NCBI GenBank assembly: GCA_977020255.1
Contig: CDROCS010001869.1
Location: 186,001 to 250,000, forward strand
DNA: 64,000 bases
Direction: 5' to 3'
DNA from: Obrimoposthia wandeli
Taxonomy: Eukaryota
Every line of letters begins with the position of its first letter. Positions within the stretch are counted from its first letter, which is position 1. Shown here piece by piece: positions 32,401-63,999 of this stretch. Under the pieces are notes generated by a model that worked only from the letters and a program-made list of their open reading frames with translations, did not search any database and was not told the origin of the DNA. Both the position numbers and the translations under genes were made by a program.

Positions 32401-35400
32401 TAAGAACTTCTTATTGAAGAAATGCCAAGAAAAAGTTCATTAAAACGGAGATTATTCACTCTTTCACCCATCATAAATGCAAAAGTTTGCCTTAAATATG
32501 ATTTATATTCAAAGATATTCTGAGGAATCAAAAGTTTAAATTATATGTTGTACTTTATATATTCTATATGACTCCTAGAAAAATTGAATCTAGAAAAATC
32601 TTATAAATATAATTATAATAATCATTTCGATATGTAGTCTTCACTGATGTTAGGAAACAAAATAGATTACATTGCTTATTATCTTATCTTAAATATTATG
32701 TATTAGGCTAATATTCAAGATAAACTTAATTATAAAACATTTTGTCAATTGTTACAAAATATTAATACAGATTAATGGTTATACATCTATATTTTAATAG
32801 TTTTGTCTAAAATCCCACAAACCCAAATGAAGTTTTAACAGAGAACCATAATTTGTGTCGCATCTATTTTGAGTAATTGAAAAAAGTTATTATAAATTCG
32901 TTTGTTTTTTAGAATGTTACTTGGAAAATATATTATATCAAACATTGACGAATTTTATATATAGAACAATTTGTGTATAGCAACAATTCAGTTTTCATCC
33001 CACTTCGCTGCACAGCTTTCCCAGAATTCATGTCGTTTGTCAAAATTATTTTTATTCACTGGTGGATTAAATGGTTTATACTTTAGTATTTTTTCGAAGT
33101 ATGCGTTGATTGCTTAATTATGTTAAGTTCGATTCTGTGGATAATCAAAGTGCTGATAAATAAGGGTAACTCTCAATTGCTGTTTTAACTTACGTTACAT
33201 TGTCCTAGGTGATGATGCTTTTTAAACTATTTTCCCATTATTATAGTTATTAAATTTACTTACTATATTATTGGTCGGTTTTCTTCTTCGGTGCTCGTAT
33301 CAAAATAAGACCGTTTTAGTCATAATATTACCATACAATAAGAACTCGTTTATCTATGTTGTAGTGTGTCACGTGACTCAAAATCTGAGAAATTTCAAAA
33401 TATACAATATTGATATATTAAAACAAACAGAAATTATTTTAAGTGTCATTGAAATATAATTAGTCTTAAGAACCGTCCAACACATTGCAAATTACCTTGT
33501 ATATTTATTTTTATAAAAAATTTAAAAAAATATATCGAGAAATAAATGACAAAAACTTTGAAAGAATATATGAAATAATAATGATGTTTAAAAGTGGAAT
33601 GACTAAATCATCGATTACAAATGAAAATTGTTAATCTGAATGTACAGTGAAACCTCGATTATCGGATACCTTATTTTAGCGGTCACCTCGTATTAACAGA
33701 TACAAATGGCCAGGCTATGAAATTATCCACCATTTTACATAGGAGTAACCGGAAGCCACAATTATCGATTTAACGAAGAAGTTTAATTTATTTTCAGAAG
33801 CACAAGATTTAAAATATTCAACTTTATTAAAAATTTTGATTGCTGGTAATGAAAAATTGAAACAAAGTAAAATTATCCAGAATTTTAAACATTTCTAATT
33901 GTATTTTAATAAAGTATCAATCGTATCAATAAAATAGATTTTCTATCATTAAACCATTCTCATTGACGCTCTACTAATTTATGTAAGCAATTTTGAGCGT
34001 GCTTTTCATTTACATATACTATTTTTTGAAGACTTCAAATTGTGGGGTAGGGAAAGTAATTTAATACTATTTAGTGGTACACGAAGATTAGAAGTTTGGA
34101 ACCCCTGATCAATATTTTGGGATTTCTTGTCTTATTTTATTACCACCTGTGATTACGTAATATTCATTATAGCGTTTCCAAATACCCGCGCCCGGGAAAT
34201 CTGCATTTTCACCTTTATCTTCGAGACTTGAGTAAGGACCTAACCTATAACCACAAGACTAGGAAGCTGAGATCCAACCTGTCCGATTATTATCCGTACG
34301 GTATTTCGGAAAGGTCATTTATTTGTCCAGGATTGTTGGTCTAAGCCTAACCAGTAAATGTTGGAAAGGGAAGTTATATTGATTGGTCTAACCGGTTCTT
34401 AAAGCATCCCACAACACCATACACTAGGTTTTGAAAATAACCTGATACATATTACTCAACTCCATGCACAGCATAAAATTTCTTCAGACATAACTGAGTC
34501 CAGATAAGCAACTAAGACTACTAAATCCTTTCGCTAAAGAATTCACGTTGGGGTTACCAGACAAGGATTCCAAAGACAGCTTTAAGAAGACTATCCTTTA
34601 CGAATATATGATCATGTTTTGATAGAATTGAACCACTCATCAATCATAAAACAGAAAACTCTTCAAACATAATACAACATGGATTTGACTTAACATTTAA
34701 TGAGATCAATAAAAATTATTTAAAGCCTCAAATGCAACTTTTAGTTATCATTATTCATGTACATATATTATATCACTAATAAACTGTTTGAATTTCTTAA
34801 CTTTTGTTCTTTTTACTGCCTAATCCTATATAAATATATGATTCATTTTCAAGAAATTTCCTAAAATGTGGATGTTTCAATTAACCGGTGGCCAGATTAA
34901 GCAGATTTCATTGTAAATCCCATTATTTATCTTATACAGTTTTAATCTATTAATAAACATTTTTAGAAGTTCCTTTATGTAACATTCTACGAAATTTTTC
35001 GTCTGATACATTTGCACACGACCAATTTCGAAAGCTGACTAAATCATTAGAATCAAATTAAATTCGGAAATGTCATTTTGAAAGTAACCCAAATGAATAT
35101 GCAGATTCGTCTTTATCAACTCTCAAAAGAAATATTGCTTACATGAACTTGTAATACCAGTAATATTGACTGCCCCTCTTTCTCGCTCTATTATGTGCAG
35201 GGACACCATCAGCAATTCCATCCACAACAGTAACAAGGGTGCACTGATAACCACGCAGTTCATGGAGGAGTGTGAGGCCCTCTGCAACCGTCTGGGCATC
35301 ATCGTCAACGGCAGAATCATGTGAGTCATTTTCAGTTACTTTAATAATAATCCAAAAATACATTTAATAAAGCAGTGTCCCAGTCTAGGAGGAAAATGCA

Positions 35401-38400
35401 GAATGTGCCAATTCTTCTCTCAATGTACTGCTATTGATGTTGTACTCGTTGTGCTGTTCGACAATGGCTTGATACATTCCCTAGGCGCTGGCTTGAATGG
35501 CCAACCAGATCACCAGATATTACCCCATTTCTTCTTGTGGGGAGTTCTTGAAAATGCTATTTTTGTTTCTAAGTCACGATCTATTGATGGACTGAACCAA
35601 AGTATTTTGCGTGAAGACGATCAAATTTCAGAAGATACTTATAGGAAATTATGTCAGAGAATTGTTAGTAGATTTAGAAATTGGGTTGAGGTTAACGACA
35701 ATCATTTTGAACATTTGTCAAAATATGTATTAATTAAGATTTTCAATCGAACTACATTACATGTGTCTCTTTATGTTATAAACAAGATTTATCGTTGCAT
35801 TTATGACAAGAATACTTTGTTGATGCTCGGTAATTTGAAAAATAACAATTACCAGGTTTGATATGTACTTTTCTATTTTTCGAAATTTCTTGCTTCATCC
35901 CATATTGTGAAAAATATGATTTTAGTTGTCTCTAAACCCTTGTAGTGTTAAATCTTTCATCATATTTTCACGCAAGGGAATGAACAGCCAATTTTGATCA
36001 CCAAGCGAATATAAAATGTAGGATTTCAAAAGGCTGACATCGAAGGAATAATATTACAAGCGGATATGGGGTTTCTTTTTCATATGCACGGATAATTTTC
36101 TATCCTTTAATTCATTACATATAATACTCATTTATTTTAGTCGTAATCTTCTATTATTATAAGTCTTTTATATAGTCTTGCGTAGTTTATTTCTCAGTTT
36201 TGAAGTAATGATGACATAAAAAATAATTCTTTCTTACCAATTTTCCGTTTTCAAAGATTGTGTTCTTTTTAGCTCTTTTTTGTGCTTGTTTTCTCTTTTG
36301 TTAGCATTAATTGTGCTTTAGTAAGTTAACCTTTTTCTAACAAATCTATTTATATATTATGATATACAAAAAATACACCTAAATAAATGTTTGAATAATT
36401 TTATGATAAGGCTTTGTCAGTTTTAGAATTGTTTCTTGAGCTAATCTTTTTGCAATACTTTCGTGATTGTTTTTACAAGTTTTGGCTTTTGATACATATA
36501 TGATGTCCCGGGACTATAAACCCGTATAATTGTCTTTCGACCGTTTTTCAATGGCGTACAATAATTTCTTAAATTTGATAAAGAAAATCAAAAAAATATT
36601 TCCCTTGGAATGATTAAATACGACTTTTCAAGAAACAGCATTGATAGACAAGTTACTTTTAGAAAAAGATCCAATATCTGTCAGACTAATTTTATCAGCT
36701 CCTATTCACACTAAAACTCGATGTTTATAAAAATATTTGATTTTACCGCGTTTTCTGTTATTATTAATAACAGTAAATAATCAAAAATTGTTGTAGTTTA
36801 TTGTTATTGAGTCATATTGTCAAACTAATTCTATCAATATATTTGATTTTTTAGAAAATAATTTATACAAGAATAGTTATAAAATTACTTTGTAAAACAG
36901 ACTTTTAACTGATTATTTTATAATAAAAATGAAGTAAGAGTTTTATAAACTGTATTTTGGAAAATATAACTTGCAGTAATGGTTATCTTATATAACTACT
37001 TATTTGAATTTGATTGTTTTCCATAAATAAAAAGTATAAATTAAACTATATAGCAATCTAAATGCATTTATTTCAAATTTAATTTGTCAACAATTCTACC
37101 GCTGAAAATTGGCAACCTTCGACACGATAAGAAATAAAAATAATATCTCAGAATCAACTCACAAGGAAACATTTCGCACGGTCATAAAAATAACTCAGTG
37201 AAATTTTAGTATATTATAAACATAATATATTGCAATATTAAAAATGTATTTTTAGCTGCTATTTATTTATAATAAAAAGTTATATGTATTAAATTTTTAT
37301 AAAATAAATTTTATTATTTGGTTTAATTGAAATAATTTAAATCCAAAAATTTAAACGCACAAGTTGAAATAGTGTTATGAATTTTAAAATCCGATAGGAA
37401 TTTGGTAAAGTTTTATTTTAAACCAATAACAATTTAATATTTTATTAAATTAATTTTTATTGGTATTTATTTATATATATTTAAACATATTTAAACACAT
37501 TTATAAATTTATCACATAAATATTTCTTTCGATAACTTTTTATATACTGAAAACCAGCAGATAATGAAATTACTTTTATATGTAGAATTCATTTCATAAT
37601 TTTTATACAAATTGCAAACTCCTAATTTTTATGACATGTAAAGTACGGTTTCCTTTTCAGGTTGTTCAGTGAATCTTGATACTTGATTCTTATTCCATAG
37701 AATTCCATAGAATATACAATTTAAATTATGTTGAGATAAAATCTACCAAATATGTCATCTAAAACACAAGAGGCCAACTGCTCTCTTTGATTTCAGGTGT
37801 ATCGGGTCACCGCAGGAGCTCAAGTCCAAGTTCGGTCGCGGCATCTCAGTGGAGATAAAGTTGTCACCAAGCCAAAATCCAGATGTCGGGATCTCCAATA
37901 AGGCAGATATCACACAGTTCCTGTTGCAGCACTACCCCAAACTGCTTACCGTGGAGCACTTTGGCGAAAGGATCACCTATCGCATACCCAAGTCGCCCAC
38001 AGTTACTTTTGGGGAGGTCTTTGAGGTCATTCACGCAGGTGAGCTAAGTGCAATCAAACCTATCTATATATAATTGATGGACTATTAAGGATTATTACGT
38101 AAAATATTTGATGTTTATCAATTTCCGACAGTGTGCCATTAACTTATGAAATTGACTATTAAATTTAAAAAAAGTTGAAAATCCAAAATGTGTCAAACCA
38201 CATCGATTTTAATACATTCACGACTTTAAAAATATATTTCGTAGTTAAAGAATTCCATCTCGATCTATAATTTCGTAATAACCTACTGAGTTCTTTAAAA
38301 AAATCAACCCATAGGGTTAGACTCATTTGTGGTTTCAACAAAACTATGTATCACAGATATTATCAATTTCAATGTACAATTTGTACAAATACGTTTACAT

Positions 38401-41400
38401 TCCATGGCGCTAACAATTTAACTACATTTACACATAATAAATTTTTACTTAAAAAACATGATTTTCATTTTCTTATATACAAAAATAAAAGAGGTTTTAT
38501 GCTTATGTTTATAAATACGTATGTGGTTGTTTTAGGAAATATATTTGAAAAAAATATGAAACTTAAATTTGTATTCAAACAGAGAAATGAAATTTCCATG
38601 ATTTTTACTGTATACTTTATAAATAATTTCTTATAACAAATAAATCTAAAAATGAAATGAATTTTATTACGATAATTTATCGAAAACTTGAAATTCTTTT
38701 CGATTGGTATAATCTTTACAATCAATAACGTTCTTGTCAATAAAGTAAATCTATAAATAAATCTATTAAAATTAAATTAAATCAAAATTTCAACTTACCC
38801 AAAAATCACTTACAAGGGCTGCCAATAATTAATAAACAGCCTCATTTATATTGAACATAATGTAAAATAAGAGAAAAAACTTACGTGAATAAAATGTTTG
38901 TTGCTAAACTTCTGCAACGTAGTATATTTTAAAATATAAATTATTTAATGTTATTTTAGATTTAAATTTTTTTTTTAAGTTTATTTTTATTTAAAATATT
39001 TATTTTTAGATAAAACACTTTACATAATTTAAATCCATATAACTTTTAGATTTTAAAAGTGTAAATAGTTTTTAAAAATTATTTTTTAGTTTATTGTTTT
39101 ATGTAATTTAATATGAACACAAAAAATATTTTCTTAATTTATAAATTTGTTGAAAGATTTTATTGAAATTAATATTTACAGTCAATATAAATGTAACTTT
39201 TATAAAAAGTAACAAACAAAGTCGTTTAAATTCATCAAATTTATTGATAAACTTGATGATACAACCATAAAGGACATAAAGAAGCACAATTAATAGTTAA
39301 TAGATTTTGTATACGAGTTTTATTATAGAATACATGGTGTTTCTCTTGAGTTTCCACATGTCTGATGAGTGCCGATGGATAATAAATTGCTAGAGGGTCG
39401 AATATGTGTACACTATCACGTCTCACGAATAACGCAATCCAGTGTTCACCAGGTAAGTTACTCGTATGAGTATTTACAACATATCCCTCGGGTTTTAGAA
39501 TCGGTATTTTGTCTATAGGAAACACTCCTTTCAATTTCTGTTCCAGTAATTCAATTCTCACAGTTTTAACCTGTTTAGTACTAAATTAATAAGTTAAATA
39601 TTAATATACACTTAATTCATTCTAAAATTGCACGTTTGGCCTTAGTTACTTGAATTTCAGTATCGAAAACTCCGTAAATTAAAATGTTTGACGGATGTTC
39701 TAATTCCATGAAAAACTTTATGTCAAGTCTTAGATTACCTTGTCTCGGTAATTGATATTGATGTGGAATGAAATGTGAAAAATGGATAACGTTCCTTAAA
39801 ATTTGTCATAATTAAATAAACTCATCAGGTAATTTAAATTAACTGACTTTAACTCAAATTGTCAACTAATTTCTGACTAATTAAAATTAATATAAATTAT
39901 GTGGTAATTTATATTCTATATAGATTTTAAATTACCACCTCATTAAAACAAATTTGAATTTAATAATGTACAATTTTCCCGTCTATATGAACAAACCGAA
40001 TTTTGATTTTCCAAACCGACATTATGAGCCATCAATACTGATGGTTCAACTCTCACACGTCTAACTTTCATTTTAGCATCTAGAAATTTATATTTTACGA
40101 TGAGTAGCACCTCTTTTTAGAGACAAGTTTGAATTTGCAATAATTCATTTTATATCAACATTTATACATGTTCTTCAAGAAAATCTGATCAAATTAAACC
40201 GATAAACTCAAATTCTTGAGATTTTGTAATCCATCCTTTCTGTACATCACCATCGGCGTCTTAACCAATTGTATATAATAAAAAACTTTTTTATCTTTGT
40301 TATAATTAAGCATACATTCAATCAAAGCCTTGTGAGCATAATAACCATTTCCTCTTTCAATACGAGTATTATTCAAGGGAATTTGCACATCTTTAAAAAG
40401 TGTATGGAAAAAAAATTTAAAGATTCGAATTTATCTTCTTCGTCCAAGTCAATATAATTGTTAGTTCCATTATGTTTTAAAACTTTAATTTTCAAAAATA
40501 ATAGAAAATCATTCAAATCTAAATATTCCGTTTCACTTGATTATATAGTAAACTCGATAGTATTGATATTACTACTTTAATATTATTCACATGGTAAATT
40601 TTCTCAAAATATCCATTTTCTATAGCAATTTGAGGTAGTGGACAACACAGTTCAGATTTTGCACGTGTCATTTCTTACTCAAATATAATTTTTATTTTCT
40701 GCGTTTGTTTGTACTACCACTTCCTTTTTGTTCCTCTTTAATTTGACCTGTAGTTATGGTGGTCGTTTTCGACTTTCCTTTATTGCAGTTATTAGTTAAG
40801 TAGCAGCTTTTGTTGCTTCAGGTAACAAATCTAGACCCTCACTAATCGCATTTGATTTCAATTGACTCAAAATTAGTTTATCATTCACCAATACATTTGT
40901 AAGTGTTTTTGCATCAATTCGTCCTAAACATGATAGTATAGGAAAAGCGATTCGCTCCAACTAATTTGATGAATGCTTGGTCGTGTATGATGGTTGGTTT
41001 GGTGGATGGTTTTGAGTTAATGTTGAAGTTGTATTGCTGTGTGTTGTGTTTAAAAATTATTTGTGCTGGTGACAGGTTGTCTTCTTTGTGTAGAGTGTTT
41101 CTGATTCCTGGTAGTGTTTTATGTAGGGTGTCTACACAATTGTTATTGCTGTTTGAGAAAGCGAGGCTTTCTATTTTTCTCCTGTATAGGCGCTCAGTTT
41201 TGCCGTTGGATTGAGCATTTTGTGCGGTTGTTGTGCTTTCTTTAATGCTATATTGTTGGCACATGGTATTTTAAAATTTTGAACTCGAATTGGCGTCCTC
41301 TATCTGATATTATCTTTGCCGGATATCTGTAGTCTGTGAACGATTCTCTTTGTAATGTATGAGTGATTGTGTTAATGTCAAATGCGTGTATGGGTACGGC

Positions 41401-44400
41401 ATCTAGCCAGTTGGTATGATTGTAAATTATGGTCATTAGGTATTTGTCCTTCTGGTTGGTTGGTAGTGGACCTACATTGTTGATATGTATTGTTTGGAAT
41501 GGATGTTTTGCTTTAATGTGGAGTTGTTTGATTTGTGTGTGTTTTTGTGTTTTGTTTAGATTACATTGTTTGCATTGTTTGATGAATGTTTGGATATGTT
41601 TTCGCATGCACGGTCAAACGTAATTTTGTTTGATTATATCGAATGTACCATTGTTACCAGAGTGGTGATTGTTGTGATGATGTTCTATACATTTTCTTAG
41701 TGTATTGGTAGAATTAATATTTTGATTTCGGGATTGGTTGTGTAGTACCATATTTAATTTTGTTTTGTTAATTTGAAATTATTGTGTCTGAACAGTTTCC
41801 TGTTGTTTGTGTTTGGTTTCTTCCTCATTGAATGGAGGATCGAATGTTATGGTGTTGGTATGTTTAATTCGTGATTGAGTGTCTGCGAATATGTATGCGT
41901 TGCCCGAGGTGTGTTTGATTGTGCAGTTAAATTGTGAGATGTAATTTATTTGTCTGATTTGGCGGGGTGAGGGTGTTTTCATGGTGATGATGTGTAGACG
42001 CGGTTTGTGATCTGTGTATAATGTGAATGTGTTGCCTTCTAAGTATGTCTCGAAATGTTTGATGGCGTCATATATAGCTAATTGTTCCTGTCAAAAGTAG
42101 AATATTTTATTTAGTGTTTTTTATTTTTTTTTAGAAGAATGCGTTGATGTGGGAGAGGATTTTGTTAATTGGTTTAGTACTGCTCTTATGGCATGATTCG
42201 ATGTATCTGTGGTGAGAGATAGTGGAGCGTTTGGAATTAGAAAGTGTAATGTGTTGAGTCTGTAATTGCTTGTTTTGCTGTTTTGAAGGGAGTTATATCG
42301 GTGTTTGTAAATGTGATTTTTGGTTGCTTGGGTTCGTTTTTTTTATCAATTCGGATAGAGGTGCTAGTATTTCTGCACACTTTAAAGTTCCCCATACCTA
42401 AAACGCTTCTGATTTCTTTGACTGTGATTGGTGTTGGCATATTGTTTATGGTTGTTGGTTTGGTTTGTAAAGATCTTATTTGATTGTGCGATATGTAGCT
42501 AGGAATTCTATGTGTGTTTGATAGTATAGGCATTTTTTGTTGTTGATTTAGAGATTGTGGTTGTCGAGTATGTTTTTGACGTGTTTTATATCTTTGGTGG
42601 GTTCTGCGTGATTGTTGCTTCCTATTAATATGTCGCCAATATATGTTACTATGTTATTTATTTTGTTGAATAGTTGATCCATAAAACGGTGGAAGGTTGC
42701 CACTGAGCTTTTAGACCAAAATAAATTTTAATATATTCGAAAAGGCCAAAAGTCGTGATTATTGCGTTTTTGTTGATATCTTCTATGTGCATATGAATGT
42801 TGTGATAGGCGGATAACAGATCAATTTTACTGAAGTAATCCTTTGGTGATATCTCTTATGAGTGGATGTGGGTAAGAGTCTGGTGTTGTTATTGCGTTTA
42901 ACATTATATAGTATCTGCAACATCTCCATGTTTTTTGTTGTTGAATTATGAGAGCTGATGACCATGGTGAGTTGGTTTTTTGTATAATGTCTTGTTTTTC
43001 TAACTCAGTGAATGTTTGTTTTGCGACTGCTAATTTTTTTATTGGGAGTTGTCTTACTTTGGTGTGACATGGTCTCCCATTTGTTATGATTTCGTGTGTA
43101 GTTGTGTTTTTGTCTATGTGTGCAATGTTGGTTTGATAGTTTGTTTGATTGTTCGGGAATATAAGGGTTTTATTTTTGCAACCTATTAGTATGTTGTAGT
43201 GTACTAGAAATCGAAACCTTGTATTGCTTGTTGGACTTTGACGACTGTGAAAATCCATTTGAATGGTTTTTTGTTTATTGTTATTACTATCTGATATACT
43301 GCATGATTTTTAAGTTTAATCATATTTTTAAAAAGTTTATAAGCATTTTATTAATACATACAACAATAATGAATTAAAAATGGACACAGAAAAAGCTATA
43401 TACATCATGTTTGAACGATAAAGCTGAATGGATTTTTCAAAATCAATTTTACATTTAAGATCTTTATGGACAAGTGCTTAAACAATTTTCCTAACATGAT
43501 CACGACTATCTTCATTAAAGCTAGTAAAGTATTGAACTCCATTTATTGTTCCACTTATAATTTGCTCAACCGTATCATCAACTAATTTATAGTGTTTATC
43601 CATTTTTATATATTATCAAATTTTAATTGTTTATACTATGAAATTGTACATTTTTTACTCTCCGTTCGATCACACGTCGACATACTGGACATGAACGCAA
43701 CATTCTGGAACATGATATACATGTATTAACATGTTCGCAAGGAAGAAATACTACTTCAATATTAGTATTTAAACATACTACACATTCAGATTAATTTAAA
43801 AAGTATGAAAGTATATTTATATATTGTTTTTCAAGTTTTATTTCTAAATAAGATAAATCATAATTCATTTCATAAGTTGTTTTATATTCTACATATCGCA
43901 TCATTTGATATTTTAAAACATAATTTATTCTATCTTTAGTGAAAAACTGTTTCAAATATTTGATTTATATCCATCAACATATCAGATTTCTCTATAGTTA
44001 AAGGATATTCAATAATACAATCTGTTTCGATTTTCAACATCATCACCATCATTAACTAAAACGTCATTAACAGTCATATAATGAATTATATAATTAACAA
44101 GCAATTTCAAAAATTAAATTTCATGTATTTGTTCATAAGAAACTTTCAAGAAAAACACATTAGACTCTATTGACAATGATAATAAAAATCTTTAATACCA
44201 TGAATAAACACCTTTACACTAGCAAATACATTAACACATATGTGATCAACCTTTACAATTCTGAATGCAGGACATAATTCAATTTCAAATATACAATTTC
44301 TTCTTTCCATGTTCACCGATATTTTATACAAATTAACCTTCTTGTTGATATTTACTAAGATACTTAGAGTATGAATATGTTCAATTTCTATATTTTTTAC

Positions 44401-47265
44401 ATGTTAAATTGGTTGTTTGCAATCCATAATCCTACATGAACCTATAATAATAATAATAATAATAATTGTAATACCTGTTGGAAATATAACTATAGTATAT
44501 TCCCTTAACTTTTCAACATATTGTATAGGTTTCTTTGATCGAAAGAGTAAGTGACTAACACTTCCCTTAACTTTACCTTTATAATTTATATTGCTTATTT
44601 TCATTTCATGTAATAATAGTGTTGATGATGTCACAGACTTATATAGTTTTGTATTATCCAATGATAATCAATAACCAATCAGATTCAAGTAGTCAACTAT
44701 AACTAACAAAATATTTAAGTTTACTGTCATTATTATTTTTCATGTTCAATTTACAAAAACAAATTTTGAAGAGCGACGATAGAAAGAAGAATGGAATTTT
44801 AAATAATCAGCGATTAAAACTCAAAAGCACAATCCATATAGATTCTGATGATACAGAATCAGAAGATATTTTTAAGTGAAAATTTCATCATGATGCCCGT
44901 AATCTATGGATTTTACTACAATGTTATGCTAACAAAATTCAAAATTGATTACGTAATATCAAGATTTCACAGTACGGTTATAAATCATCTTAATACTTTT
45001 TCAAAGGTATGAAATTGGATATAATGTTTTTTTAAATTTAGTGTTTTCATTATAGCTAATGAAAATTCATTCCCGGAATCTATGAATTCTATGAAGAAGA
45101 GATTCCCAAATGCAAAAATTGGACATTATTTATTCAAATACAAGTTCAAAGTTGATAAGCTCGGAAAAACCGAAGCCTATATCGAAAATTACAGAAGGAA
45201 ACGTGAAAGTTTAATAAATATTGACTGTCTTTATTATCTTTTACTATAAACAAAAGGATTTTTAAATATTCCTTGTCACCGGTGCTGCCCGGTCATGCAG
45301 GGCCTTTCTCTTAGGAGGCTCCGAAAGGGAGAATTTGGTAATTTTTTAAATCTATAAGTTTCAAATACACGTAAAACACTTTAAAACATATAAAAAATGC
45401 AAAATTTAAAATTTGTAACATCAAAGCTAAAATTCTTGTATAAACCGCGAAATTTAAAAATTCAGTCTCTAAATCGTGCATTCGGGAATTTGCAGTAAAA
45501 TGTCATTTTGGAATCATTTAGTGTGGTTTGAGTGATTTTTGTGTGTTTTTGAGGAATTTGTAGTAGAATAGAGTGTTGGAACGGGAATGATGGAATTAAG
45601 AGCACAGCGTACCACCCCGGAGGCCTTTGTTCCGAAATTCCCGTACCGACACTATGCATCAATTTCTTTTAAATATCAAAATCGAGTGGCATGAAATGTA
45701 GATTAGGCCGTAACAATGGATATTAAGTAAATGGATTTTGTTTTGAATACTTTCCAATCAGTCTTTAAAAATTGATTCAATGAAACAACTTTGATTGTTA
45801 TATTTATCACACTGTCGGTGTACTGATATTGTCATTTGTGAATAAAATAAGATAATAGATATTCAATGGGAAATGGCATAAATTAAATTAAAATATGTTT
45901 TGTTTAAATTGTAAGTTGCGGTTAAATTTTGATAATTTCTCTCGCTTCTTTTCTAGCGACTCAATGGTGAATTTTTTTCATAGAATTTTCAAGTAATTAT
46001 AAGGAATATATAATTCTATTCAATTTCTAAACTCGCCAGAAATTATTTTTCTACTTTATAATTATAGACACATCAATTTATTGATTGCACTTTTAATTTT
46101 CGTGACTCAGCTTTTTATTTTGAATGTTTTAGTTTCAATTAGAAATATTTCATCATCAGCAGGCTAAATTAACGAAAATTTTTGTTGTTATTTTTGAAAC
46201 AAATTCTTAATTATTCATTATAATCGTGTCATTGTACTTTACTTTCTTTTACATTAAAATAACATTTAAGTTTGTTCAAATATCTAAATTTAAGTATCAA
46301 ATAATATTGTACTTTTAAAAAGTTTCTATTATAATTTAAATTTGCAAATGTTCTGTTTTATAACTATGAAGTCCTTAGAGATAATGAATAACAACACAAA
46401 ATTAAAGTGATTTTAATATATTTCCCATTGATCCACTCATTTACAATATTTGTGCTGGGATTAACGTACTTTGAACCAATGAATGTGATGGGCCAATCAA
46501 TTGATGAACACTATTTAGCTACTATTTTTGTTACAAATTGTTTCGTTATTTAAGGCTATTCAACATAAGCACAGTTTAAGATTTGATGGATGGTATAAAT
46601 AAGTCAAATCATGTAATATGTCATGCGTAATTAAAAGAAAATGAATAGATAAAAACGGTAGGTACATTGCACATACATATCAAATTGATTTTTATTCTCT
46701 CATAGTTAGTTTGAATGCATATAATACAAAGAAATTAAATTTATTCATGCATTTTCGGATATAACTTCACATAAGTTATTTTGTCATTTTAGGGTTGGAA
46801 TTTACTGAATTTGCAATTTGAGTTGTGGAAGTTGAAAATCTCAAATTTCAAATAAAACTAAAATTCGTAGAAATAATAAGAACAATTATGCTAGAAAAGG
46901 AAATCCACTATGTACAAATTTGGTTGTATACATACATTATACAGGGAAAAAACTGGGAAATGTTCTGTAAAAGAAAACTTCACACAATTATTATTGTTCG
47001 TAAAATTTATCTTGGAATTTTATTGTTTTTTTATTTTAGAATCTAAATGTAATCTCACTCAGTTCTTTATGAATTAAATCATATTCCTTAAGTCCATACC
47101 CTGTCGTTACACTATGTTTACGTTTTAGCTAAAGAAAAGTTTCCAGTTGAAGACTACGCCGTCAGTCAACCAACTTTGGAGCAGGTATACTTCGATTTTG
47201 CAAAATTCCAGACCAAGGATGACCTCAAATATGACGTCGAAATCAACTGGAAATACAAGTCCTGA
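5092..47265 (+). CDS. ABCA: ABCA-subfamily ABC transporter, C-terminal half (16 exons; 5' half lies upstream of the window)
   Basis: All 16 exons have AG/GT boundaries and compatible phases. Spliced protein shows TM7-12, Walker [11 protein letters not shown]-loop CPQ, signature LSGGCKRR, Walker B/D-loop [32 protein letters not shown] and the ABCA C-terminal [24 protein letters not shown] at 47373. Confidence 0.95.
7151..7464 (-). pseudogene. Polinton basic core-type protein (QKGGF motif)
   Basis: [87 protein letters not shown], one nonsense codon and a frameshift. Resembles the small basic Polinton protein encoded downstream of the ATPase. Confidence 0.7.
7510..7745 (-). pseudogene. Second, more decayed QKGG-motif basic protein
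   Basis: Lys-rich frameshifted frame ending [10 protein letters not shown], between the ATPase and the clearer paralog. Confidence 0.35.
7712..8078 (-). pseudogene. Polinton packaging ATPase (FtsK/A32-like), C-terminal fragment
   Basis: [18 protein letters not shown] and [20 protein letters not shown]...[25 protein letters not shown] match Polinton ATPase motifs (H+NxSVIxxxQNLF; LFKNPRD; PYGYLxxD; RLRTxIF). Confidence 0.85.
8300..10070 (-). mobile_element. Degraded pogo/Tigger-like DNA transposon remnant
   Basis: TA-CAGTGCACTCTGCGTTAT terminus at 10070 next to a (TA)n run; weak [16 protein letters not shown]-terminus near 9700; left boundary uncertain. Confidence 0.35.
10578..10720 (+). CDS. 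ABCA: ABCA exon (extracellular domain 2)
   Basis: TTTTCAG|AT...TGG|GTAAGT; phase 1-0, open frame. Confidence 0.85.
12456..12752 (+). CDS. ABCA: ABCA exon (ECD2 and TM8, ends VVRDRM)
   Basis: TTCCAG|AAC...ATG|GTGGGC; 99 codons; VRDR matches ABCA V(K/R)ER. Confidence 0.9.
13183..13314 (+). CDS. ABCA: ABCA exon ([24 protein letters not shown]9)
   Basis: TTTAG|ACA...GAT|GTAAGT; 44 codons; matches the AKHLQxxxG...YW motif. Confidence 0.9.
15593..15742 (+). CDS. ABCA: ABCA exon (TM10 region)
   Basis: TTTCAG|AAT...ATG|GTAAGC; 50 hydrophobic codons, YCVSFAF resembles ABCA YxxSFxF. Confidence 0.85.
17091..17216 (+). CDS. ABCA: ABCA exon (TM11 region)
   Basis: TTTAG|GTT...TTT|GTGAGT; 42 codons, phase 0-0. 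Confidence 0.8.
17667..17845. mobile_element. MITE, Tc1/mariner-pogo type
   Basis: 23-bp TIRs CAGTAATTATTCACCT(A/G)TAAGGG with one mismatch, TA on both flanks, internal CACCTATAAGGG repeats. Confidence 0.9.
18632..18739 (+). CDS. ABCA: ABCA exon (loop before TM12)
   Basis: TTACAG|AGG...GTA|GTATGT; 36 codons, phase 0-0. Confidence 0.7.
20202..20358 (+). CDS. ABCA: ABCA exon (TM12 and linker)
   Basis: TTTAG|CAC...GAAG|GTACGA; phase 0-1, GC-rich open frame. Confidence 0.8.
20880..21260 (-). mobile_element. Chapaev3-like (CMC) transposase remnant
   Basis: LHVFVPI*...HDDCYFC and [15 protein letters not shown] match the FxVPMxWRE..HxxDCYFC / YPNxPSAIRPVPH motifs. Confidence 0.6.
22732..22808 (+). 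CDS. ABCA: ABCA exon (pre-NBD2 linker)
   Basis: TTCAG|AT...GAT|GTAAGC; phase 1-0, only one open frame. Confidence 0.75.
23937..24152 (+). CDS. ABCA: ABCA exon (NBD2 Walker A)
   Basis: [16 protein letters not shown]; TTAG|GTG...AAG|GTAGAC. Confidence 0.95.
25574..25759 (+). mobile_element. Mariner transposase N-terminal HTH remnant
   Basis: [47 protein letters not shown] matches the mariner HTH consensus. Confidence 0.85.
26200..26384 (+). CDS. ABCA: ABCA exon (NBD2 Q-loop)
   Basis: [20 protein letters not shown]; CCCAG|GTT...AC|GTGAGT. Confidence 0.95.
27072..27147 (+). CDS. ABCA: ABCA exon (ABC signature LSGGCKRR)
   Basis: TTCCAG|G...CGG|GTGAGA; phase 2-0. Confidence 0.95.
29770..30330 (-). 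mobile_element. Degraded DNA-transposon-like coding remnant, family unresolved
   Basis: GC-elevated frameshifted frames with a Cys/His-rich end ([19 protein letters not shown]), reminiscent of piggyBac-type C-terminal domains. Confidence 0.3.
30896..30990 (+). CDS. ABCA: ABCA exon (Walker B and D-loop)
   Basis: [31 protein letters not shown]; TGCAG|TTA...TG|GTAAGG. Confidence 0.95.
33645..33720 (+). mobile_element. Tigger/pogo-type TIR remnant
   Basis: TA-CAGTGAAACCTCGATTATCGGATACC; partner end not found. Confidence 0.5.
34190..34620 (-). mobile_element. CR1/L2-like LINE 3' fragment
   Basis: EFFSERI...GCFKNRLDQ resembles the CR1 ORF2 C-terminus FFSxRV...FKxRLD, followed by a GC-richer 3' UTR. 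Confidence 0.5.
35201..35320 (+). CDS. ABCA: ABCA exon (H-loop region, His replaced by Gln)
   Basis: [22 protein letters not shown]; TGCAG|G...AT|GTGAGT. Confidence 0.95.
35500..35945 (+). mobile_element. Tc1/mariner transposase C-terminal remnant
   Basis: [23 protein letters not shown]...[11 protein letters not shown] matches DFFLWGxLK...GxHFEHL. Confidence 0.8.
37797..38038 (+). CDS. ABCA: ABCA exon (regulatory R2 domain)
   Basis: [15 protein letters not shown]; TTTCAG|G...CAG|GTGAGC. Confidence 0.95.
39241..39620 (-). pseudogene. Polinton adenain-type cysteine protease with a 35-nt intron (39615-39581) whose donor reads TTAAGT
   Basis: Spliced [25 protein letters not shown]...[16 protein letters not shown]...IFDPL...[13 protein letters not shown] keeps catalytic H, D, Q and C; exon 2 is open. 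Confidence 0.9.
39617..40671 (-). pseudogene. Polinton major capsid protein, frameshifted
   Basis: [30 protein letters not shown] and GNLRLDIKF...[15 protein letters not shown] align with the intact capsid at 62773-63999; the TGA stop overlaps the protease ATG. Confidence 0.9.
40690..40910 (-). pseudogene. 3' part of a small gene upstream of the capsid (amphipathic/basic)
   Basis: [31 protein letters not shown] then a Lys/Arg-rich tail; identity rests mainly on position. Confidence 0.3.
40914..43260 (-). mobile_element. Ty3/Gypsy pol remnant (RT, RNase H, integrase), no LTRs seen
   Basis: [79 protein letters not shown]. Confidence 0.9.
43320..43603 (-). pseudogene. Unknown small ORF with one nonsense codon (probably Polinton accessory)
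   Basis: [57 protein letters not shown]...; no recognisable family. Confidence 0.35.
43623..43935 (-). pseudogene. RING-finger (IAP/Mdm2-like C3HC4) protein
   Basis: [40 protein letters not shown]; one in-frame stop just upstream of the RING; missed by the ORF track because there is no Met. Confidence 0.85.
44167..44604 (-). pseudogene. TATA-binding-protein-like gene with a 33-nt intron (44474-44442) and one nonsense codon
   Basis: Spliced: ...[19 protein letters not shown]...[13 protein letters not shown]...[15 protein letters not shown], matching the two TBP repeats (IFxSGKxVxTGAK; YEPELFPGL). Confidence 0.7.
44880..45170 (+). mobile_element. Possible MULE transposase remnant
   Basis: MMPVIYGF and [12 protein letters not shown] resemble MULE PxVYALL and AxKxxFPxAxIxGC. 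Confidence 0.35.
47129..47265 (+). CDS. ABCA: ABCA terminal exon with stop codon
   Basis: TTTTAG|CT; [25 protein letters not shown]...KS*. Confidence 0.95.
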
Positions 47266-47999: not shown

Positions 48000-48720
48000 T
48001 TTATTAATAATAATTTCTATAACATTAGACATCCTTCGGTAATCTTCCATATGGGTTTTAAACTTCCATCATGTTTGGTCATGAATCCTTGAATCATGAT
48101 GAAGAGGGTCCATTTTCCATTTTTCATATCCTTTTCAACATTACAATAATTTGCAAAAATACGTTCATCAGCTCTCATCAATATACAATTTCTATGGATT
48201 TTATATCGAATATCCAATTTCTGCATGAGTTCATTCAATTGTTTAATTCAATTCAGTTGCATGTTCAGAGTCTTTGGTCTCAAAGCTATAATCTTGGCGA
48301 AGTTCTGCAAACAATTAAAGTATACATTTTCTTCTGCTGATTCGACTAGCAGTTTTCTATTGAAATATAATCCATACTGTTTTTTTACCAGTCATACCTA
48401 GAATATTGTATAATACTTATAGTAGCCAACGCCGATATCCAGTTTTTGTAGACGTCATCCGAAACGTCGAGTTCAAATTTCCATCTCTTCTTACAGCCAT
48501 ATCTTGAATCGGTCTACGAGTATAATCTATTTTGAACATAGTAGTGTCTCACATCTAGAACAATTTTTGTAACCTCTACCTTCTCAGTGAATATAGATCA
48601 ATGATTGTATAATTATCTGTATAATTCATGCGATTACATCTTAAGCAAAAGTTGGTTCTTTCTATTTTATCACTGAAGATGTCGCATTCTTCTGATTCCA
48701 GACTCGATTCTAATGATCCC
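48000..48720 (-). mobile_element. Possible degraded non-LTR retrotransposon ORF2 tail
   Basis: Weak: KRWKFELDVSDDVYKNW resembles the WxxDL...W stretch of L1/Tx1 ORF2; many stops. Confidence 0.25.
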
Positions 48721-49226
48721 GATTTTATGTTTGGCTGGTGATTTCTTTTAATAAAGTGTTTTTCAAAAAGTTTGAAGTACTTATAATATTATATCATCAA
48801 TAGCAATAAAATAAAACAAAATAAACGCTATTATAACATATGAATCGATGATAAGTAGAACTACTGTTTCAATTTGAGTAAAAGATAATTAATATGAGTA
48901 TTGATTAATTACCTGTGTAAACCGTAATGTACTTATGAGACTCCATTAGCTATTTTTGGAAAAAATATATCAGTGAAGATAAAAGGCATCGACTACAGGT
49001 ATTATTTATGATTAAATGTTTTTCTAAACATTTATCCCATAATAATTTGTACTACAAACGTTTTAAATATTTTCAATATAAAATTTACATATTTAAATAA
49101 TATTAGACCTGATAAATAAGGGTGCCTTTGAGATAAGTTTTAATGACGTTAATATACAAAGGCAAAGTAAAGAAATATAATATAATATTTGTGAAAGATA
49201 AGTGGGACGTTGGAAAACGTCCTTTT

Positions 49227-51754
49227 TTAAGCATGGGATTTTAACGAGTTCTTTGGTCTTTCTTTTCGTTTCCGCTTACTTCTCCTAATCCAAGTGGGAT
49301 TCATCTCACTCGTCCATCTATTCCACACATGACTAATGAACTCTTGTATTCTACACCACCGATGCCTGAGTTTTCCGCTCCCTGTTGACGCTGTCTCATT
49401 CCCCAAACTTTCTTCTCTTCCACTCACCATGAAATATTTTGGTCTTAACCGTAATTCTTCATTGCTATCTGCTGACTGAAAAGTGATTGCTCGAGAGTTC
49501 ACAGCTCCTCAACTTCAACGGATACCGTCATCAGCTCTTCATCACTTAGGTCAGCATTCATCAACACCATCCCAATAGCTTTATTAGCGCTCCTGATCAA
49601 ACTTTCAAACACTCCCCCAAAATGTGGCGCGATTTGTGGGTTAAATATCCAACGAATCTCTTCTCGTTCCAATTGCTTTCTCATTCTGTAATCGCAATTC
49701 AAATTTCACTTGTTACGTTAGCTGTCCCTTGAAGGTTTGTGCCATTGTCGGAAATAATCAAATGCGGCCTATCCCGTCTTCCCATAAATCTCTTTAAAGC
49801 CCTTATAAACTCGTCCGACTCTAAATTTCAAGCCATCTCTAGAGGTACCGCCCGTGTTTGTAAGCATGTAAACAAACATAAATATCGTTGGTTTCGAACA
49901 CAATGTGGCAATAACCACTTAGTCTCATTTTCCTTTGATTTCGAAATCATCGTAAATAACCCTTGTCTATATGATCATCTATCACTCGGCTATATTCCAT
50001 CTTTAATTGAGGGTCACGTGCAAATTTCCGAATCAAACTCTCCATTCGACTTTTTATCATCTCTTTACTTTTGCGTAACTCTTCTTTCACCGGTTTCCAC
50101 GGTATCCTCACCTGATACTTGTCGCCGTCATACACAATCGTGTGTTTCGTTTTCTGGATCAGTCTTTCATATTCGATTGACATTATCGTTTCATTCATAC
50201 ATTCCTCAATAGCCCAAAACCTTTGCAGCATCTTGTTTAATTGTTCGTCTTGTGCCAGATACGTTCTTGCGAAATCTGTTGTATTTCCTCCACTACCATC
50301 TATCATTCCCATACACGTCCAACCCAGCGGTGTCAACCAAGCCACCGGATCTCCATCTCTTCCAGCAACTTCTCTAATCACTCGATGCGCTCTCATGCAA
50401 TCTGCATCTATCAAGACATCAATGTTTTGCAATTTCCGACCTCTTTTTTGGAATTGTATATTCCTGAGATGTGGCCATCTTCCTGCTATTTTATCCCACT
50501 TGTATACTGTCAAGTCGCCAGTTGCGCTATTTACGGTTAGAGCATCTAATATTAAATTTTCTTTACTATCCACACTTTTAACCTGCACTTTCATTGATGT
50601 AGCTCTTATCTCTTGCACCTTCCCTCCAACAACTTCTACTGGAACTATATATTCTGGTCTCTCTAATCTCAATGCCTTTGCTATTCAGTTGTTGGCATAA
50701 CTCGTTGTGCTAGCATCATCTAATAGTGCGTTTACCGACACTGTCTTTCTTCGATTTTTCAGAATGACAGGCACTGTTCGCAATGTTATCATTTGATCTG
50801 GCCTCTTTTTAATCTTACGCGTTACATATGTCTCCTGCATCTTTCCATTATCTTTCGAATCTCTGTGGACTAAATAATGGTGTTTTGTTCTGCAACCAGT
50901 TGCATTGCAAAGCTTCTTCATCTTACATTCGTTTGCGCGATGTCCTCTATTTAGACAATTGAAACATAATACATGCTGTCTCACTAAATGCCATCTAATT
51001 CAACGCTAAGCTCTTAAATAGCTCACATTGACTTAGATAATGTTTCTCCCCACACTTAAGACAACTAATTATCCGCTCCTGGGTTCCTCGCAATGTGTTA
51101 GTAAGATACGTAACTCTTCCTCTTTCTACTCCAGTCCTTCCGACTCCTTGTGATACATCAGCTGCCTTCTGCAAATAACCGGCCTCCTGTCGAGCCCATT
51201 TTGCTAACGTTTCCATATCTTCTTCTTCCTTACACGTATGAATGTGCCTTCCACAACTGATTTTAGATACATCCGGCATTAATTTCAACACTTTATGGAA
51301 CAACATTCCATTTTTTAATTCTTCTTCCTTCTTCATCTCTTTCAATTTGACTATTGTCGTTTCCACAAACTCTGCATACTTCTCTTACATAAAGTCACTG
51401 CTGCAACTGCAGCTGGATCTTCTGTGTAACCGCATCAAAAAGCTCCTTAAGCCGCCAATTTCCAAAGCGAATCGTCCTACGACCAAGGAGCCTGACAGTG
51501 AGATTGCCTCTCGTCGGGCCGTCCAAATCTGTCCAACAAAAAAAACTCACATAAACCACTTTCCACTATGACTATTTATACTCTTTTACAAACACACAAC
51601 CTCACACAATATGTCCATAAAAATGTCACATTCAACATATATTAACTAGTTAATGTGGGCTCTTAACTAGTCACCAACGTGCAACTCCACCCGCATAGGC
51701 GAACTACCAGCTACAATCAGGCAGTTGACAACCGGGCCACTTGACGTCAGAACA
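49227..51754 (-). mobile_element. BEL/Pao LTR retrotransposon, internally deleted and rearranged
   Basis: Gag knuckles CFNCLNRGHRANEC/CNATGCRTKHHYLVH, protease ALLDDASTTSY, LQRFWAIEE, integrase CLFTCLQTRAV, ISDNGTN, APHFGGVFESLIRS, HVWNRW; candidate 5' LTR start TGTT at 51754 with TATAAATA near 51575. Confidence 0.9.
51387..51531 (+). other. 145-bp inverted copy of the host exon at 54906-55050
   Basis: 6 substitutions in 145 nt by manual alignment. Confidence 0.95.
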
Positions 51755-61169: not shown

Positions 61170-62131
61170 TCAATAGTTTCCTCAAATGGGATGTAATTAC
61201 TGAGCATAGAGAGTGTGTCAGTAAATATACCCCTTTTTTAAATGAATTGCAGTATCATGGAATAGATTTTACTGTTAAATTAACTGCGATATCAAGATTT
61301 GAACATCTTAATAACTTGAGTATTAATGTATTCAAATATAATACTGATATCCCAGTTAATGTAACAGATGAAGAAATTTTTAAAAATCCTTTTGTAGATT
61401 TAATTTATAGGAGCAAAAATGAGGGGACTCAGGTCAACTTAATTTTGCTCGAACATAATAAAAAATTCCATTATGCTGCAATTCCCAATGCAGATGACTT
61501 GGTAGCAGTGTTATTAGGAAAACAGAGTATTTGTCTCGATCAACCGAGTTATATAGGTCAAATGGTTTTAGACATTTCTAAACTCAGAATGTATGAGCTT
61601 CAATACATAGAATTGGAGAAATACCGACAAGAATTTAATTGTGAGATCAAAATCGCGGCTGGAGACACTGGCTCTTTCTTTTTAGAATGTAGGAATGTTA
61701 GTTTAAATAATCAATTATTACCAGCAATGTTTAGGGACAACTTACTAGATACCCATAAATATCCCGCAAACCATCTTCTACACTCTATGAGTTTAAAGGA
61801 CATTATCGGGAAATTTAAGGATGAAAGCGAGGGACAGGTTTCGTATGATGATTGTATTTTCCTACGCCCTAAATGCTACAGTTTATATGCATCTAATAAT
61901 ACATGTTCAATGAGAGCAAAGGGTGTGGGAAGAAACAATCTTACACATGAGGCCTACCGGAAAGTTTATGATACTGGGTGTATTGAAAGCGTTGAGCAAA
62001 CTAGATTTATTTCAAGAGCCCATCAACTGTATTCCCATAAATCAACCAAAATCGCTTTGAGTAGTAATGACGACAAGCGCTTTTGGGTAGAAAAGAACGC
62101 TAGCCTGGCTTATGGACACTTCAGAATTTAA
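61170..62131 (+). pseudogene. polB: Protein-primed family B DNA polymerase, 5'-truncated and internally deleted
   Basis: VSKY..LQYHGIDFTVKL..ISRFEHLNNLSINVF..VNLILL..HY (N-terminal region) is fused to LVAV..DQPSYIGQMVLDISKLRMY, GDTGS, GKFKDE, LRPKCYS, RAKGV, LSSNDDKR, LAYGHF (C-terminal region). Confidence 0.92.
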
Positions 62132-62392
62132 ACGGTTTTCATTTTTTGATTTTTTTAGTTTAGTTTTTTAATATTTTAGATCCCTATGGCACCTCGACTC
62201 TAACTTATTTGTTATTTCAATACTTTTTTAGGATGGACCTTATCTTTGCTGACATATCTCATTGTGATGTTGTGATTAATAAATGTATTAAAAAAAATTG
62301 TCTTATGTCTTTTATTATTTTACCCTTATATTTTTAGAGATTTAAAAAATAATTTAAAATAAAACATTAAAAATATTTATTTTTATAACACA

Positions 62393-62771
62393 CTAATCGT
62401 TTTGCAACGATAACCATAAAATACATAAATGTCCACAGTTTCTCGTCGCAGGATCCTGATATTGTATCTTGTTGTAAAATACTCTTCTTCGTCCTTTTTG
62501 AATAGTCGAAACAAGTTAGTGTGGATAATACATTGCAAGTGGATCAAATACATGTATTGTCCACTCTAACATAAATAGCTATCCAATGTTCTCCTGGTAA
62601 ATTCGAAGTATGAGTATTGATAATGTAACCTCCAGATTGAAAAAATGGAATCATATCAATAGGATAAACTCCATTGAATTTATCACCCAGGACCTTCTCT
62701 GCTGATTCTTTTACTTGTTTTGAACTAAATAAAAATTAATAAATATAAATTTAAAATATGTCTTACTCCAT
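62393..62771 (-). pseudogene. Adenain-type protease with a canonical 42-nt intron (62766-62725); one frameshift and one nonsense codon
   Basis: ATGGA|GTAAGA...TTTAG|T gives MDSKQVKESAEKVLGDKFNGVYPID...[16 protein letters not shown]; later HVFDPL and YQDPATRNCGHLC; not in the ORF track. Confidence 0.9.
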
Positions 62772-62772
62772 T

Positions 62773-63999
62773 CTATAATATGACAGTTCTGTTTTTATTG
62801 ATTTGTATTTCCGAATCAAATACTCCGTAAATAAGCACCGTAGTAGGATTTGTTAAAGCTGCATTGAACTTAATTTCTAGTCGTAAATTTCCATCCTTTG
62901 GTAGTTGGCATTGGTTTATATCAAAGTCTGGTGTCAAAACAAATGTGAAGAACGGGCAGCTGTTTTTAAAGTCAGTGAAATAAATACCATTGTTTATATT
63001 TTTATCTAGTTGACCCAAATTTCGAATAATAGATTGGGTATAAGCCAAAGCATAAGCGTTACCTTCGAAATCTGTTTTATATGTTTCACGATAATCAGTA
63101 TTTCTTGAAAGTGTCACTGAACCAACATTAAGATTGTCAAATTGAGTTGCATCTGTCGTATAATTTCCTTGAAACTTTGCAGTTTTTTGAAAAGAAATTA
63201 AAATGAATTTCGGTAATCTTACATCACCAAAAATTTGATCCTTATTAAAAGCTTGTGTACCCGTACCTAAAGAATAAGATATAAGTTTAGTTTCTCTAAT
63301 AGGATAACAAGCATTGTTTTTTTCCATTCCTATATTATGTGCCATTAAAACTGATTGCTCGGTTTTAACTCTTCGAACATACAATTTTGCATCCAAAATA
63401 TCAAGTCTAGGTTTTAGAATGTCCGTGCTTATCAAAGAAAAATTCCATTTATTACGTTTCAAACGAAGATGTACATTAACACCGGGAATTAAATATTTCG
63501 GTTGTTCAAAGAAATTCAATCTCAAAGACCCACACATTTCGTAAGCTTTAGAACCTGCAATCCATTCTTTGCGAGTTGCATCAGTTTTATCATAACCAAT
63601 GGTTGCCAAATTAGTATTTTGAGTATCAGTACTATAATTCAAAAGACTTTCAATCAAAGCTTTATGAGCATAGGAAGAAGTTTTACCTTCAATTTTGACA
63701 TTATTAAGAGTAACAATGGCATCATTAAATAAAGAATTAAATAGGTAATTTACAGGTGTTACATCGGCATTTTCATCTAAATTAGTACCATCCCGATTTA
63801 ATACTTTTATTTGAACATAAAGCAAAGTATCATTCAAATCTAAATACTCGCTATTGGAACCATTAATATTAAATTCTAAATCGGTTAAAGTGGTTCCTGA
63901 AACTGAGTTAACAAGGAATATTTCTTCAAAGGAAGCATTATCTACAACTACTTGTGGAAGCGGTTTATCAAAAATACATAATTCAGTTTTGGCGCAACT
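62773..63999 (-). CDS. Polinton/adintovirus major capsid protein (double jelly-roll), open frame, 5' end just beyond the window
   Basis: Frame is open from 63999 (SCAKTELCIFDKPLPQ...EYLDLNDT), through [14 protein letters not shown] and GNLRLEIKF, to the TAG at 62773; 408 codons plus stop in the window. Confidence 0.95.
   Translation of the reverse strand, partial: SCAKTELCIFDKPLPQVVVDNASFEEIFLVNSVSGTTLTDLEFNINGSNSEYLDLNDTLLYVQIKVLNRDGTNLDENADVTPVNYLFNSLFNDAIVTLNNVKIEGKTSSYAHKALIESLLNYSTDTQNTNLATIGYDKTDATRKEWIAGSKAYEMCGSLRLNFFEQPKYLIPGVNVHLRLKRNKWNFSLISTDILKPRLDILDAKLYVRRVKTEQSVLMAHNIGMEKNNACYPIRETKLISYSLGTGTQAFNKDQIFGDVRLPKFILISFQKTAKFQGNYTTDATQFDNLNVGSVTLSRNTDYRETYKTDFEGNAYALAYTQSIIRNLGQLDKNINNGIYFTDFKNSCPFFTFVLTPDFDINQCQLPKDGNLRLEIKFNAALTNPTTVLIYGVFDSEIQINKNRTVIL

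Follow-up and report, generated by a model that had tools for sequence, protein, structure and literature searches.

What is a gene for a TATA-binding protein (TBP) doing in a cluster of Polinton genes? The question is raised by a stretch of 64,000 nucleotides from Obrimoposthia wandeli (contig CDROCS010001869.1 of assembly GCA_977020255.1, positions 186,001 to 250,000; hereafter the window), in which a first-pass annotation had recognised a TBP-like gene carrying an in-frame intron of 33 nt and one nonsense codon. The gene had been assigned to an adintovirus lineage as its own minimal factor of about 134 residues, which might redirect or compete with host transcription initiation. The gene, the 33-nt stretch and the nonsense codon were all confirmed (Table 1). 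The element concerned is a Polinton with a reduced TBP (mini-TBP), whose gene carries a conserved and very probable micro-intron in this genome; the window holds a dead copy of it.

According to its sequence, the window copy is a dead fossil of an old lineage (lineage A) and would yield no product. Its second exon shows drift at several motif positions that are otherwise conserved, and the in-frame TAA is covered without differences by a contig of run X3, which possibly derives from the same sample as the assembly. The C-terminal half matches the Pfam family TBP (PF00352) weakly (E-value 0.0014, 18.9 bits), and the scores obtained for the window copy (16.7-18.9 bits) stay under the cut-off of 22.9 bits, against which two intact relatives reach 63.8 and 52.1 bits. 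Only 12 residues separate the IHG motif from the stop codon, compared with a median of 24 in the 19 loci measured. Because the window copy stops early, the length of 134 residues given before has to be regarded as a decay product; members of the family are mostly 140-160 residues long, with about 145-155 residues as the typical figure. The DNA of the window copy is 80-86% identical to the 19 nearest copies fetched, and its ratio of nonsynonymous to synonymous substitution rates (dN/dS) against three relatives, 0.37-0.45 over 83-87 codons, fits the expectation after death. A database search with the window protein (X at the stop) returned none of seven candidates and no sequence match in the PDB, the protein being too decayed. 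As to the letters of the 33-nt stretch, the reported GTATTA and the ATT run are both present, and the shorthand used before had omitted a CA between them.

The assembly comprises 1.35 Gb, is AT-rich and appears to be animal, judging by its TBP and actin genes. The window protein had at least 151 matches in its own genome, and a TBP profile produced at least 150 further rows, including 10 host TBP genes among those listed. The element copies form at least five lineages, A to E. Lineage B is young, with copies mostly 94-99% identical, and all four of its elements that were traced end to end carry the TBP-like gene between terminal inverted repeats, so that its presence in full-length Polintons, which the first-pass annotation had named as a check, is established. 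These four elements measure 14.8-15.3 kb, are flanked by exact 6-bp target duplications and possess inverted termini of about 550-620 nt starting with AG. Their gene order comprises a small unnamed gene, the TBP-like gene, a BIR-RING gene, the ATPase, small genes, the integrase, a putative minor and a putative major capsid gene, the protease and a polymerase-like open reading frame (ORF). Pfam matches in relatives were obtained for the integrase (rve, 47 bits), the ATPase (Pox_A32, 29.2 bits) and, weakly, the protease (Peptidase_C5, E-value 0.005). The polymerase-like ORF of at least 808 residues, named so by its position and by motifs, adjoins one terminus and has homologues in loci outside this genome, its only Pfam match being Endonuclease_7. 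The putative capsid ORFs of about 410 and 390 residues, labelled by size, position and motifs, lie at the expected places and are conserved in outside loci; neither a Pfam nor a PDB sequence match was found for them.

Such Polinton clusters also harbour copies of the other four lineages (A, C, D and E). Among 25 loci of this genome that were picked by their ATPase, the TBP-like gene was found within 1.5 kb in seven, the flanks being too short to call its absence in the others. The TBP-like gene is under purifying selection between sub-lineages (dN/dS 0.11-0.13 in three pairs).

Some further features of the young elements were noted. A palindrome of about 170 nt opens each terminal repeat (L022:1760-1933, L154:6277-6449), and the single-stranded ends could fold as long hairpins. 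In one case a young lineage-B element has inserted into the TBP-like gene of an older element of lineage-C type (L022:1935-2021, L154:5976-6230); such nesting of Polintons in Polintons is recurrent among the fetched loci. The small gene adjoining the TBP-like gene (L022:952-1332 and relatives) has no Pfam match and is conserved in 20 of 81 outside loci.

Homologues are not restricted to this genome. A single-query database search matched 43 outside proteins, and a profile search gave 510 matches, of which the best 120 were examined while the others may include cellular TBPs. A Polinton core gene is present in 39 of the 81 outside loci, and in 19 of the 25 of those with a length of at least 4 kb. 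The expected linkage to Polinton genes was thus recovered, and this linkage indicates that the TBP-like gene recurs across a broad group of Polintons and is not, as supposed before, the property of a single lineage. A match on a viral contig (L073) belongs to a contig of giant-virus type with a canonical TBP of 182 residues and falls outside the mini-TBP family. A tree built from exon 2 (88 rows, 87 columns; five loci of this genome that were not extractable and 15 of 80 metagenome loci that were not extracted, contained stops or were duplicates are left out) shows an open fork for A, B and E, with an unreliable root and a long branch to the host TBPs. A recent capture of a host TBP was rejected in view of this long branch and of 50-60% identical homologues in unrelated metagenomes. 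The host itself holds at least five TBP-like genes, two of them head-to-head and two intronless and divergent, together with several BRF/TFIIB-like copies (L041-L050, L174-L183).

The family has the two-repeat saddle fold of TBP according to a structural model of a natural relative. The protein P0004, an intronless frame of 144 residues from lineage E, was modelled by AlphaFold2 with 37 database homologues (pLDDT 94.5, pTM 0.83). All PDB rows listed by Foldseek with E-values up to 0.001 were TBP chains or TBP-containing complexes, the best one with an E-value of 8.7e-10, and VIA aligned 144 of 144 residues over both lobes (Z 13.6, root-mean-square deviation 2.5), the next unrelated row having a Z of 6.8. 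Viral TBP-like proteins rank after TBP. The resemblance to the two TBP repeats that had been noticed in the letters is therefore borne out by the structure search. In the P0004 model the C-lobe is complete; the N-lobe retains its strands, lacks helix 1 and reduces helix 2 to a helical turn of three residues. Correspondingly, the N-lobe spacings amount to 35 and 31 residues compared with 47 and 43 in host TBPs, and the helix-2 linker to 18 residues with three Lys/Arg compared with 31 residues with eight. A single-sequence fold of a natural open frame of lineage B, with its insert read through, was uninformative (pLDDT 33).

The surfaces retained by the mini-TBP may point to a partner. Among 127 aligned proteins the C-lobe glutamates, which were mapped to positions C.L3.2 and C.L3.4 by aligning the YEPELFP motif to solved TBPs, are nearly invariant: E94 is present in 123 and replaced by Asp in four, and E96 is present in all 127. 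The same holds for the phenylalanines F98 (127/127), F114 (126/127) and F39 (121 of 121 non-gap positions). The stirrup Phe of the N-lobe aligns to a gap in one profile alignment, but the conserved F20 (97/116) could substitute for it. The contact between TBP and TFIIB is DNA-dependent and a textbook pair. The available text of PMC7221094 assigns TFIIB binding to the C-lobe glutamates, and the service of TFIIA, TAF1, Brf and Mot1/BTAF1 to a basic patch of the N-lobe; it further describes most viral TBPs as varying at the glutamates and accompanying a viral TFIIB. A TFIIB-like gene was not found in the elements, as host TFIIB/BRF pieces matched none of 17 element loci, although a very divergent one could escape such a search; nor did nine unassigned element ORFs give any Pfam match of TFIIB type. 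In the whole genome the TFIIB profile had 12 matches only.

A candidate target was found upstream of the element's genes. When loci of this genome were scored 10-70 nt before the ATG and compared with shuffled upstream sequences (means 0.1-0.9), the box ATAAACA preceded the ATPase gene in 24 of 32 cases, the small core gene in 11 of 13, the major capsid gene in 10 of 14 and the minor capsid gene in 7 of 10. Before the TBP-like gene it was found in none of 50. The reversed box does not occur before the ATPase, small core, major and minor capsid genes; the sense copies cluster about 31-47 nt before the ATG, and one element contains 14 sense and no antisense copies over 9.9 kb. The TBP-like gene itself probably has a promoter of host type (Table 1): TATATA[AT] is present in 11 of 50 of its upstream sequences compared with 4.2 in shuffled ones, and TATATA and ATTGG were also recognised by eye in lineages B and C, ATTGG in three of the five lineages. 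The N-lobe of TBP reads the 3' half of a TATA box. It is in this half that ATAAACA departs from the canonical box, and the lobe reading it is the remodelled part of the mini-TBP.

On balance, we favour the reading that the mini-TBP binds (T)ATAAACA, its element's own box, and is predicted to serve the genes for packaging and capsid by recruiting TFIIB and RNA polymerase II from the host, the insert in its gene being a real intron. The TBP-like gene would be made early from the host-type TATATA/CCAAT promoter, and its transcript would be spliced by the host spliceosome in lineages A to D. The intact C-lobe with both TFIIB-contacting glutamates and both phenylalanines would then dock host TFIIB. 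The N-lobe, which has lost helix 1 and retains little of the basic helix 2, would escape TFIIA, TAF1, Mot1/BTAF1 and NC2 and would read the non-canonical 3' half of the box, and the product would thereby mark the element's own morphogenesis promoters and bring host TFIIB and polymerase II to them. The mini-TBP is thus likely a late-gene activator of its own element, and activation of the late genes is favoured over the redirection of or competition with host initiation proposed before, because the box precedes the element's own morphogenesis genes.

Several observations weigh against this reading. The fold was computed on a relative about 42% identical to the window copy and not on the window copy itself. 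The box is weakly represented before the integrase (4/16) and the other small gene (3/9), precedes the IAP gene in one of two cases, and several of its copies lie partly within the coding part of the gene before it. Because related sequences recur in the upstream sets, the counts are inflated and not independent. TBP-less Polintons which could serve as a control for the box were not found, the scans of viral contigs being empty.

The alternative that survives best is the competition envisaged in the first-pass annotation, which we consider unlikely but of some weight. Here the mini-TBP would act mainly as a decoy, binding host TATA boxes or soaking up TFIIB/BRF, and ATAAACA would be read by host TBP or by a Forkhead protein, whose consensus it fits. 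The combination of intact TFIIB-contacting glutamates and lost co-activator surfaces would suit a dominant-negative as well as an activator, and a TBP-less set that could tie the box to the TBP-like gene was not found. The box is, however, strictly oriented and resembles a core promoter in its distance from the ATG, whereas enhancer-type Forkhead sites are usually orientation-free, and it is absent from the TBP-like gene itself. Moreover, a general transcription poison would be costly for elements residing at hundreds of germ-line copies.

It seems improbable that the TBP fold has been re-used for a DNA task other than transcription, for instance to bend the hairpin repeats at the termini when the element is replicated or packaged. 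The terminal palindromes described above would provide a substrate, and replication initiators include TBP-like folds (weak rows in VIA, Z 5.8-6.8), but the near-invariance of the TFIIB-contacting glutamates and the TATA-like box marking the late genes argue against such a role.

There remains the insert in the Gly codon. Comparative evidence makes it very likely that the 33-nt stretch is a real short spliceosomal intron, as had been claimed, because unrelated and often frame-breaking inserts, mostly with GT..AG ends, occupy the same site in four lineages, while the site is empty in lineage E and outside this genome. Of the 96 loci of this genome examined, 89 could be placed (L013 was counted in lineage A from its sequence), and 76 of these carry an insert at the same nucleotide of the Gly codon; the other 13, which belong to lineage E, have exactly 12 nt from the F codon to the C codon. 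Both GT and AG are present in 67 of the 76 inserts, and the length of 36 is not a multiple of three. When the count is limited to loci selected solely through their match to exon 2 (42 inserts), GT and AG are present in 38 and the frame is disrupted in 28. Lineage A has inserts of 15-51 nt made up of ATT repeats; those of lineage B measure 33-45 nt, those of C 38-40 nt and those of D 36-38 nt. Where the insert of lineage B is in frame, it contains a stop in 13 of 14 cases. For the window insert, GT and AG at both required places would be expected from the local composition at about 0.2%. Outside this genome, 70 of the 81 loci are contiguous across the site by pattern and seven more by alignment, three do not cover it, and one is the giant-virus TBP; nor does an intron interrupt this site in the host TBP genes that were inspected. 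For each of the lineage-B genes encoding ATPase, integrase and major capsid, at least one copy is an uninterrupted open frame, and the micro-intron is the only intron seen in the element.

Against a spliced intron stand the lengths of the inserts, which with mostly 33-41 nt are shorter than three measured host introns (43, 47 and 48 nt), and the occurrence of a single in-frame length in 6 of the 10 inserts of lineage C and in 14 of the 33 of lineage B. A survey of actin and tubulin loci yielded no further host intron that passed the filter. The exon-exon joint was not found in contigs of four runs from one sample, which behave as DNA and are uninformative on expression. A microsatellite expansion or short insertion in decaying copies, or a reading through as 11 extra residues, would be suggested by the ATT repeat of the window lineage with its flanking direct repeat of 4 nt and by the in-frame, stop-free stretch of the window copy, but is highly improbable since lineages B, C and D have unrelated sequences with GT..AG ends at the identical nucleotide position, the frame is shifted in 14 of 15 lineage-D copies despite a dN/dS of 0.11, and among the rows listed for DNA contigs of the young family the in-gene indels (885, 905 and 907) are confined to the insert, which spans 880-915 in L034, apart from one in the last three codons. 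The intron was probably gained in the elements of this host at an AG|GT site; from the sequences available, the second-exon tree cannot tell one gain from several.

The full combination of these elements, a one-protein switch from early to late expression in which the mini-TBP recognises TATAAACA as its private box, makes use of host TFIIB and resists eviction by Mot1 and NC2, with splicing of the micro-intron gating the virion programme in four lineages, is speculative and rather doubtful as a whole. If true, the splicing efficiency of the TBP-like gene would gate the entire programme. The intron implies, as far as can be deduced from comparison, that host splicing is required by a gene of mobile and intact Polintons, elements commonly portrayed as lacking introns. 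The mini-TBP and its matching box bear on the timing of capsid genes in animal Polintons and on whether particles are formed. The mini-TBP may furthermore be regarded as a natural deletion experiment, in which a saddle of 145 residues has retained the surface for TFIIB and lost that for the regulators.

The neighbours of the TBP-like gene in the window (Table 1), namely the IAP remnant, the capsid remnant and the protease, agree in strand and order with the intact relatives. Insertion of an unrelated TBP-like gene into the cluster was rejected, as the relatives share this gene order. A decayed gypsy-type piece occupies the place which ATPase, integrase and minor capsid genes take in relatives, so that about 3.5 kb are missing and the protease is the sole survivor of the integrase/ATPase/protease trio. 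The capsid label was inferred from size, position and Polinton gene order and has no Pfam or PDB match. Terminal inverted repeats and a target duplication were not found for the decayed window copy.

Table 1. Features of the window around the decayed TBP-like gene (positions counted from the first letter of the window)
Feature	Position	Strand	Remark
Frame of the TBP-like gene	44167..44604	minus	ATG 44604, stop TAG 44169-44167
Exon 1, most of the reduced N-terminal lobe	44475..44604	minus	reaches to the Gly of the F-x-x-G turn
33-nt GT..AG stretch of ATT repeats	44442..44474	minus	phase 1 in the Gly codon; insert present here in lineages A to D, absent from lineage E
Exon 2, end of the N-lobe and C-terminal TBP repeat	44167..44441	minus	early TAG 44169-44167
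In-frame TAA breaking the window copy	44404..44406	minus	
Probable host-type promoter of the TBP-like gene	44639..44680	minus	no ATAAACA box; putative function
TATATAA	44645-44639	minus	
ATTGG (reverse CCAAT) boxes	44679-44675 and 44662-44658	minus	
BIR-RING (IAP) gene remnant	43626..44110	minus	most of the BIR part deleted at about 44053
Remnant of the small unnamed gene	44881..45111	plus	adjoins the TBP-like gene in relatives
Decayed gypsy-type retrotransposon piece	40960..43286	minus	
Fragments of a small core-protein gene and of a putative major capsid gene	39623..40960	minus	same Polinton copy
Adenovirus-type cysteine protease remnant	39253..39582	minus	Peptidase_C5, weak

Further Polinton pieces lie elsewhere in the window. 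A second, better-preserved one (61490-63999) runs off the window end, its polymerase-like C-terminus (plus strand, 61490-62128) facing a protease and a capsid-like gene on the minus strand, and a third fragment with ATPase, small core gene and the start of an integrase is situated at 7001-8064 on the minus strand. Another remnant of the small neighbour gene (48020-48190) was detected beside an apparent decayed BEL/Pao-type retrotransposon (49200-51600), a label given by eye from the ORFs. Exons of a host ABCA-like transporter (35097-38070, plus strand; weak R1_ABCA1 match) adjoin the Polinton fragments, which are possibly located inside an intron of this gene. In the assembly as a whole, many weak matches of the actin family and short ones of the tubulin family resemble bacterial MreB/FtsA and FtsZ in length and coverage, which suggests the presence of bacterial contigs.

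In the literature searched, from which subscription papers, Repbase entries and preprint supplements were outside the scope, no paper describing this mini-TBP family was found. A term search gave no mention of TBP in PMC3671162 or bioRxiv 10.64898/2026.10.13.758929. In the available parts of PMC8502044 and its preprint, the label 'TBP' appears in the legend of Fig. 5 on MELD viruses from non-animal datasets, and one supplement of PMC8502044 contains no TBP match.

The elements share with Polintons/Mavericks (adintoviruses, Eupolintoviridae) the AG-starting inverted repeats, the 6-bp duplications, the integrase, ATPase and protease, the IAP cargo as well as polymerase-like and capsid-sized genes. 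Unlike Polintons/Mavericks as described, they carry a TBP-like gene and an intron. The available text of PMC8097293 presents intact vertebrate Mavericks as free of introns, and that of PMC12166617 reports introner-derived introns in dinoflagellate eupolintoviruses.

A viral TBP fold is also common to the TBPs of giant viruses and herpesviruses (Nucleocytoviricota, B263R of African swine fever virus, BcRF1/UL87). The herpesvirus protein BcRF1/UL87 activates late genes from a non-canonical TATA box. According to the part of PMC7221094 available, the regulatory surface of the N-lobe is not conserved in viral TBPs, as is the case in the mini-TBP. Most viral TBPs described there keep full or enlarged lobes and have a TFIIB of their own, whereas the mini-TBP retains the glutamates and its 15-kb elements yielded no TFIIB gene. 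With cellular TBPs (eukaryotic TBP/TRF and archaeal TBP) the mini-TBP has in common the two-lobed saddle, the YEPELFP stirrup of the C-lobe with both glutamates and three of the four DNA-wedging Phe positions. It differs from them in its size, about 145-155 residues compared with a cellular core of about 180, and in its N-lobe, where helix 1 is missing, little of the basic helix 2 is left and, according to one profile alignment, the stirrup Phe is absent.

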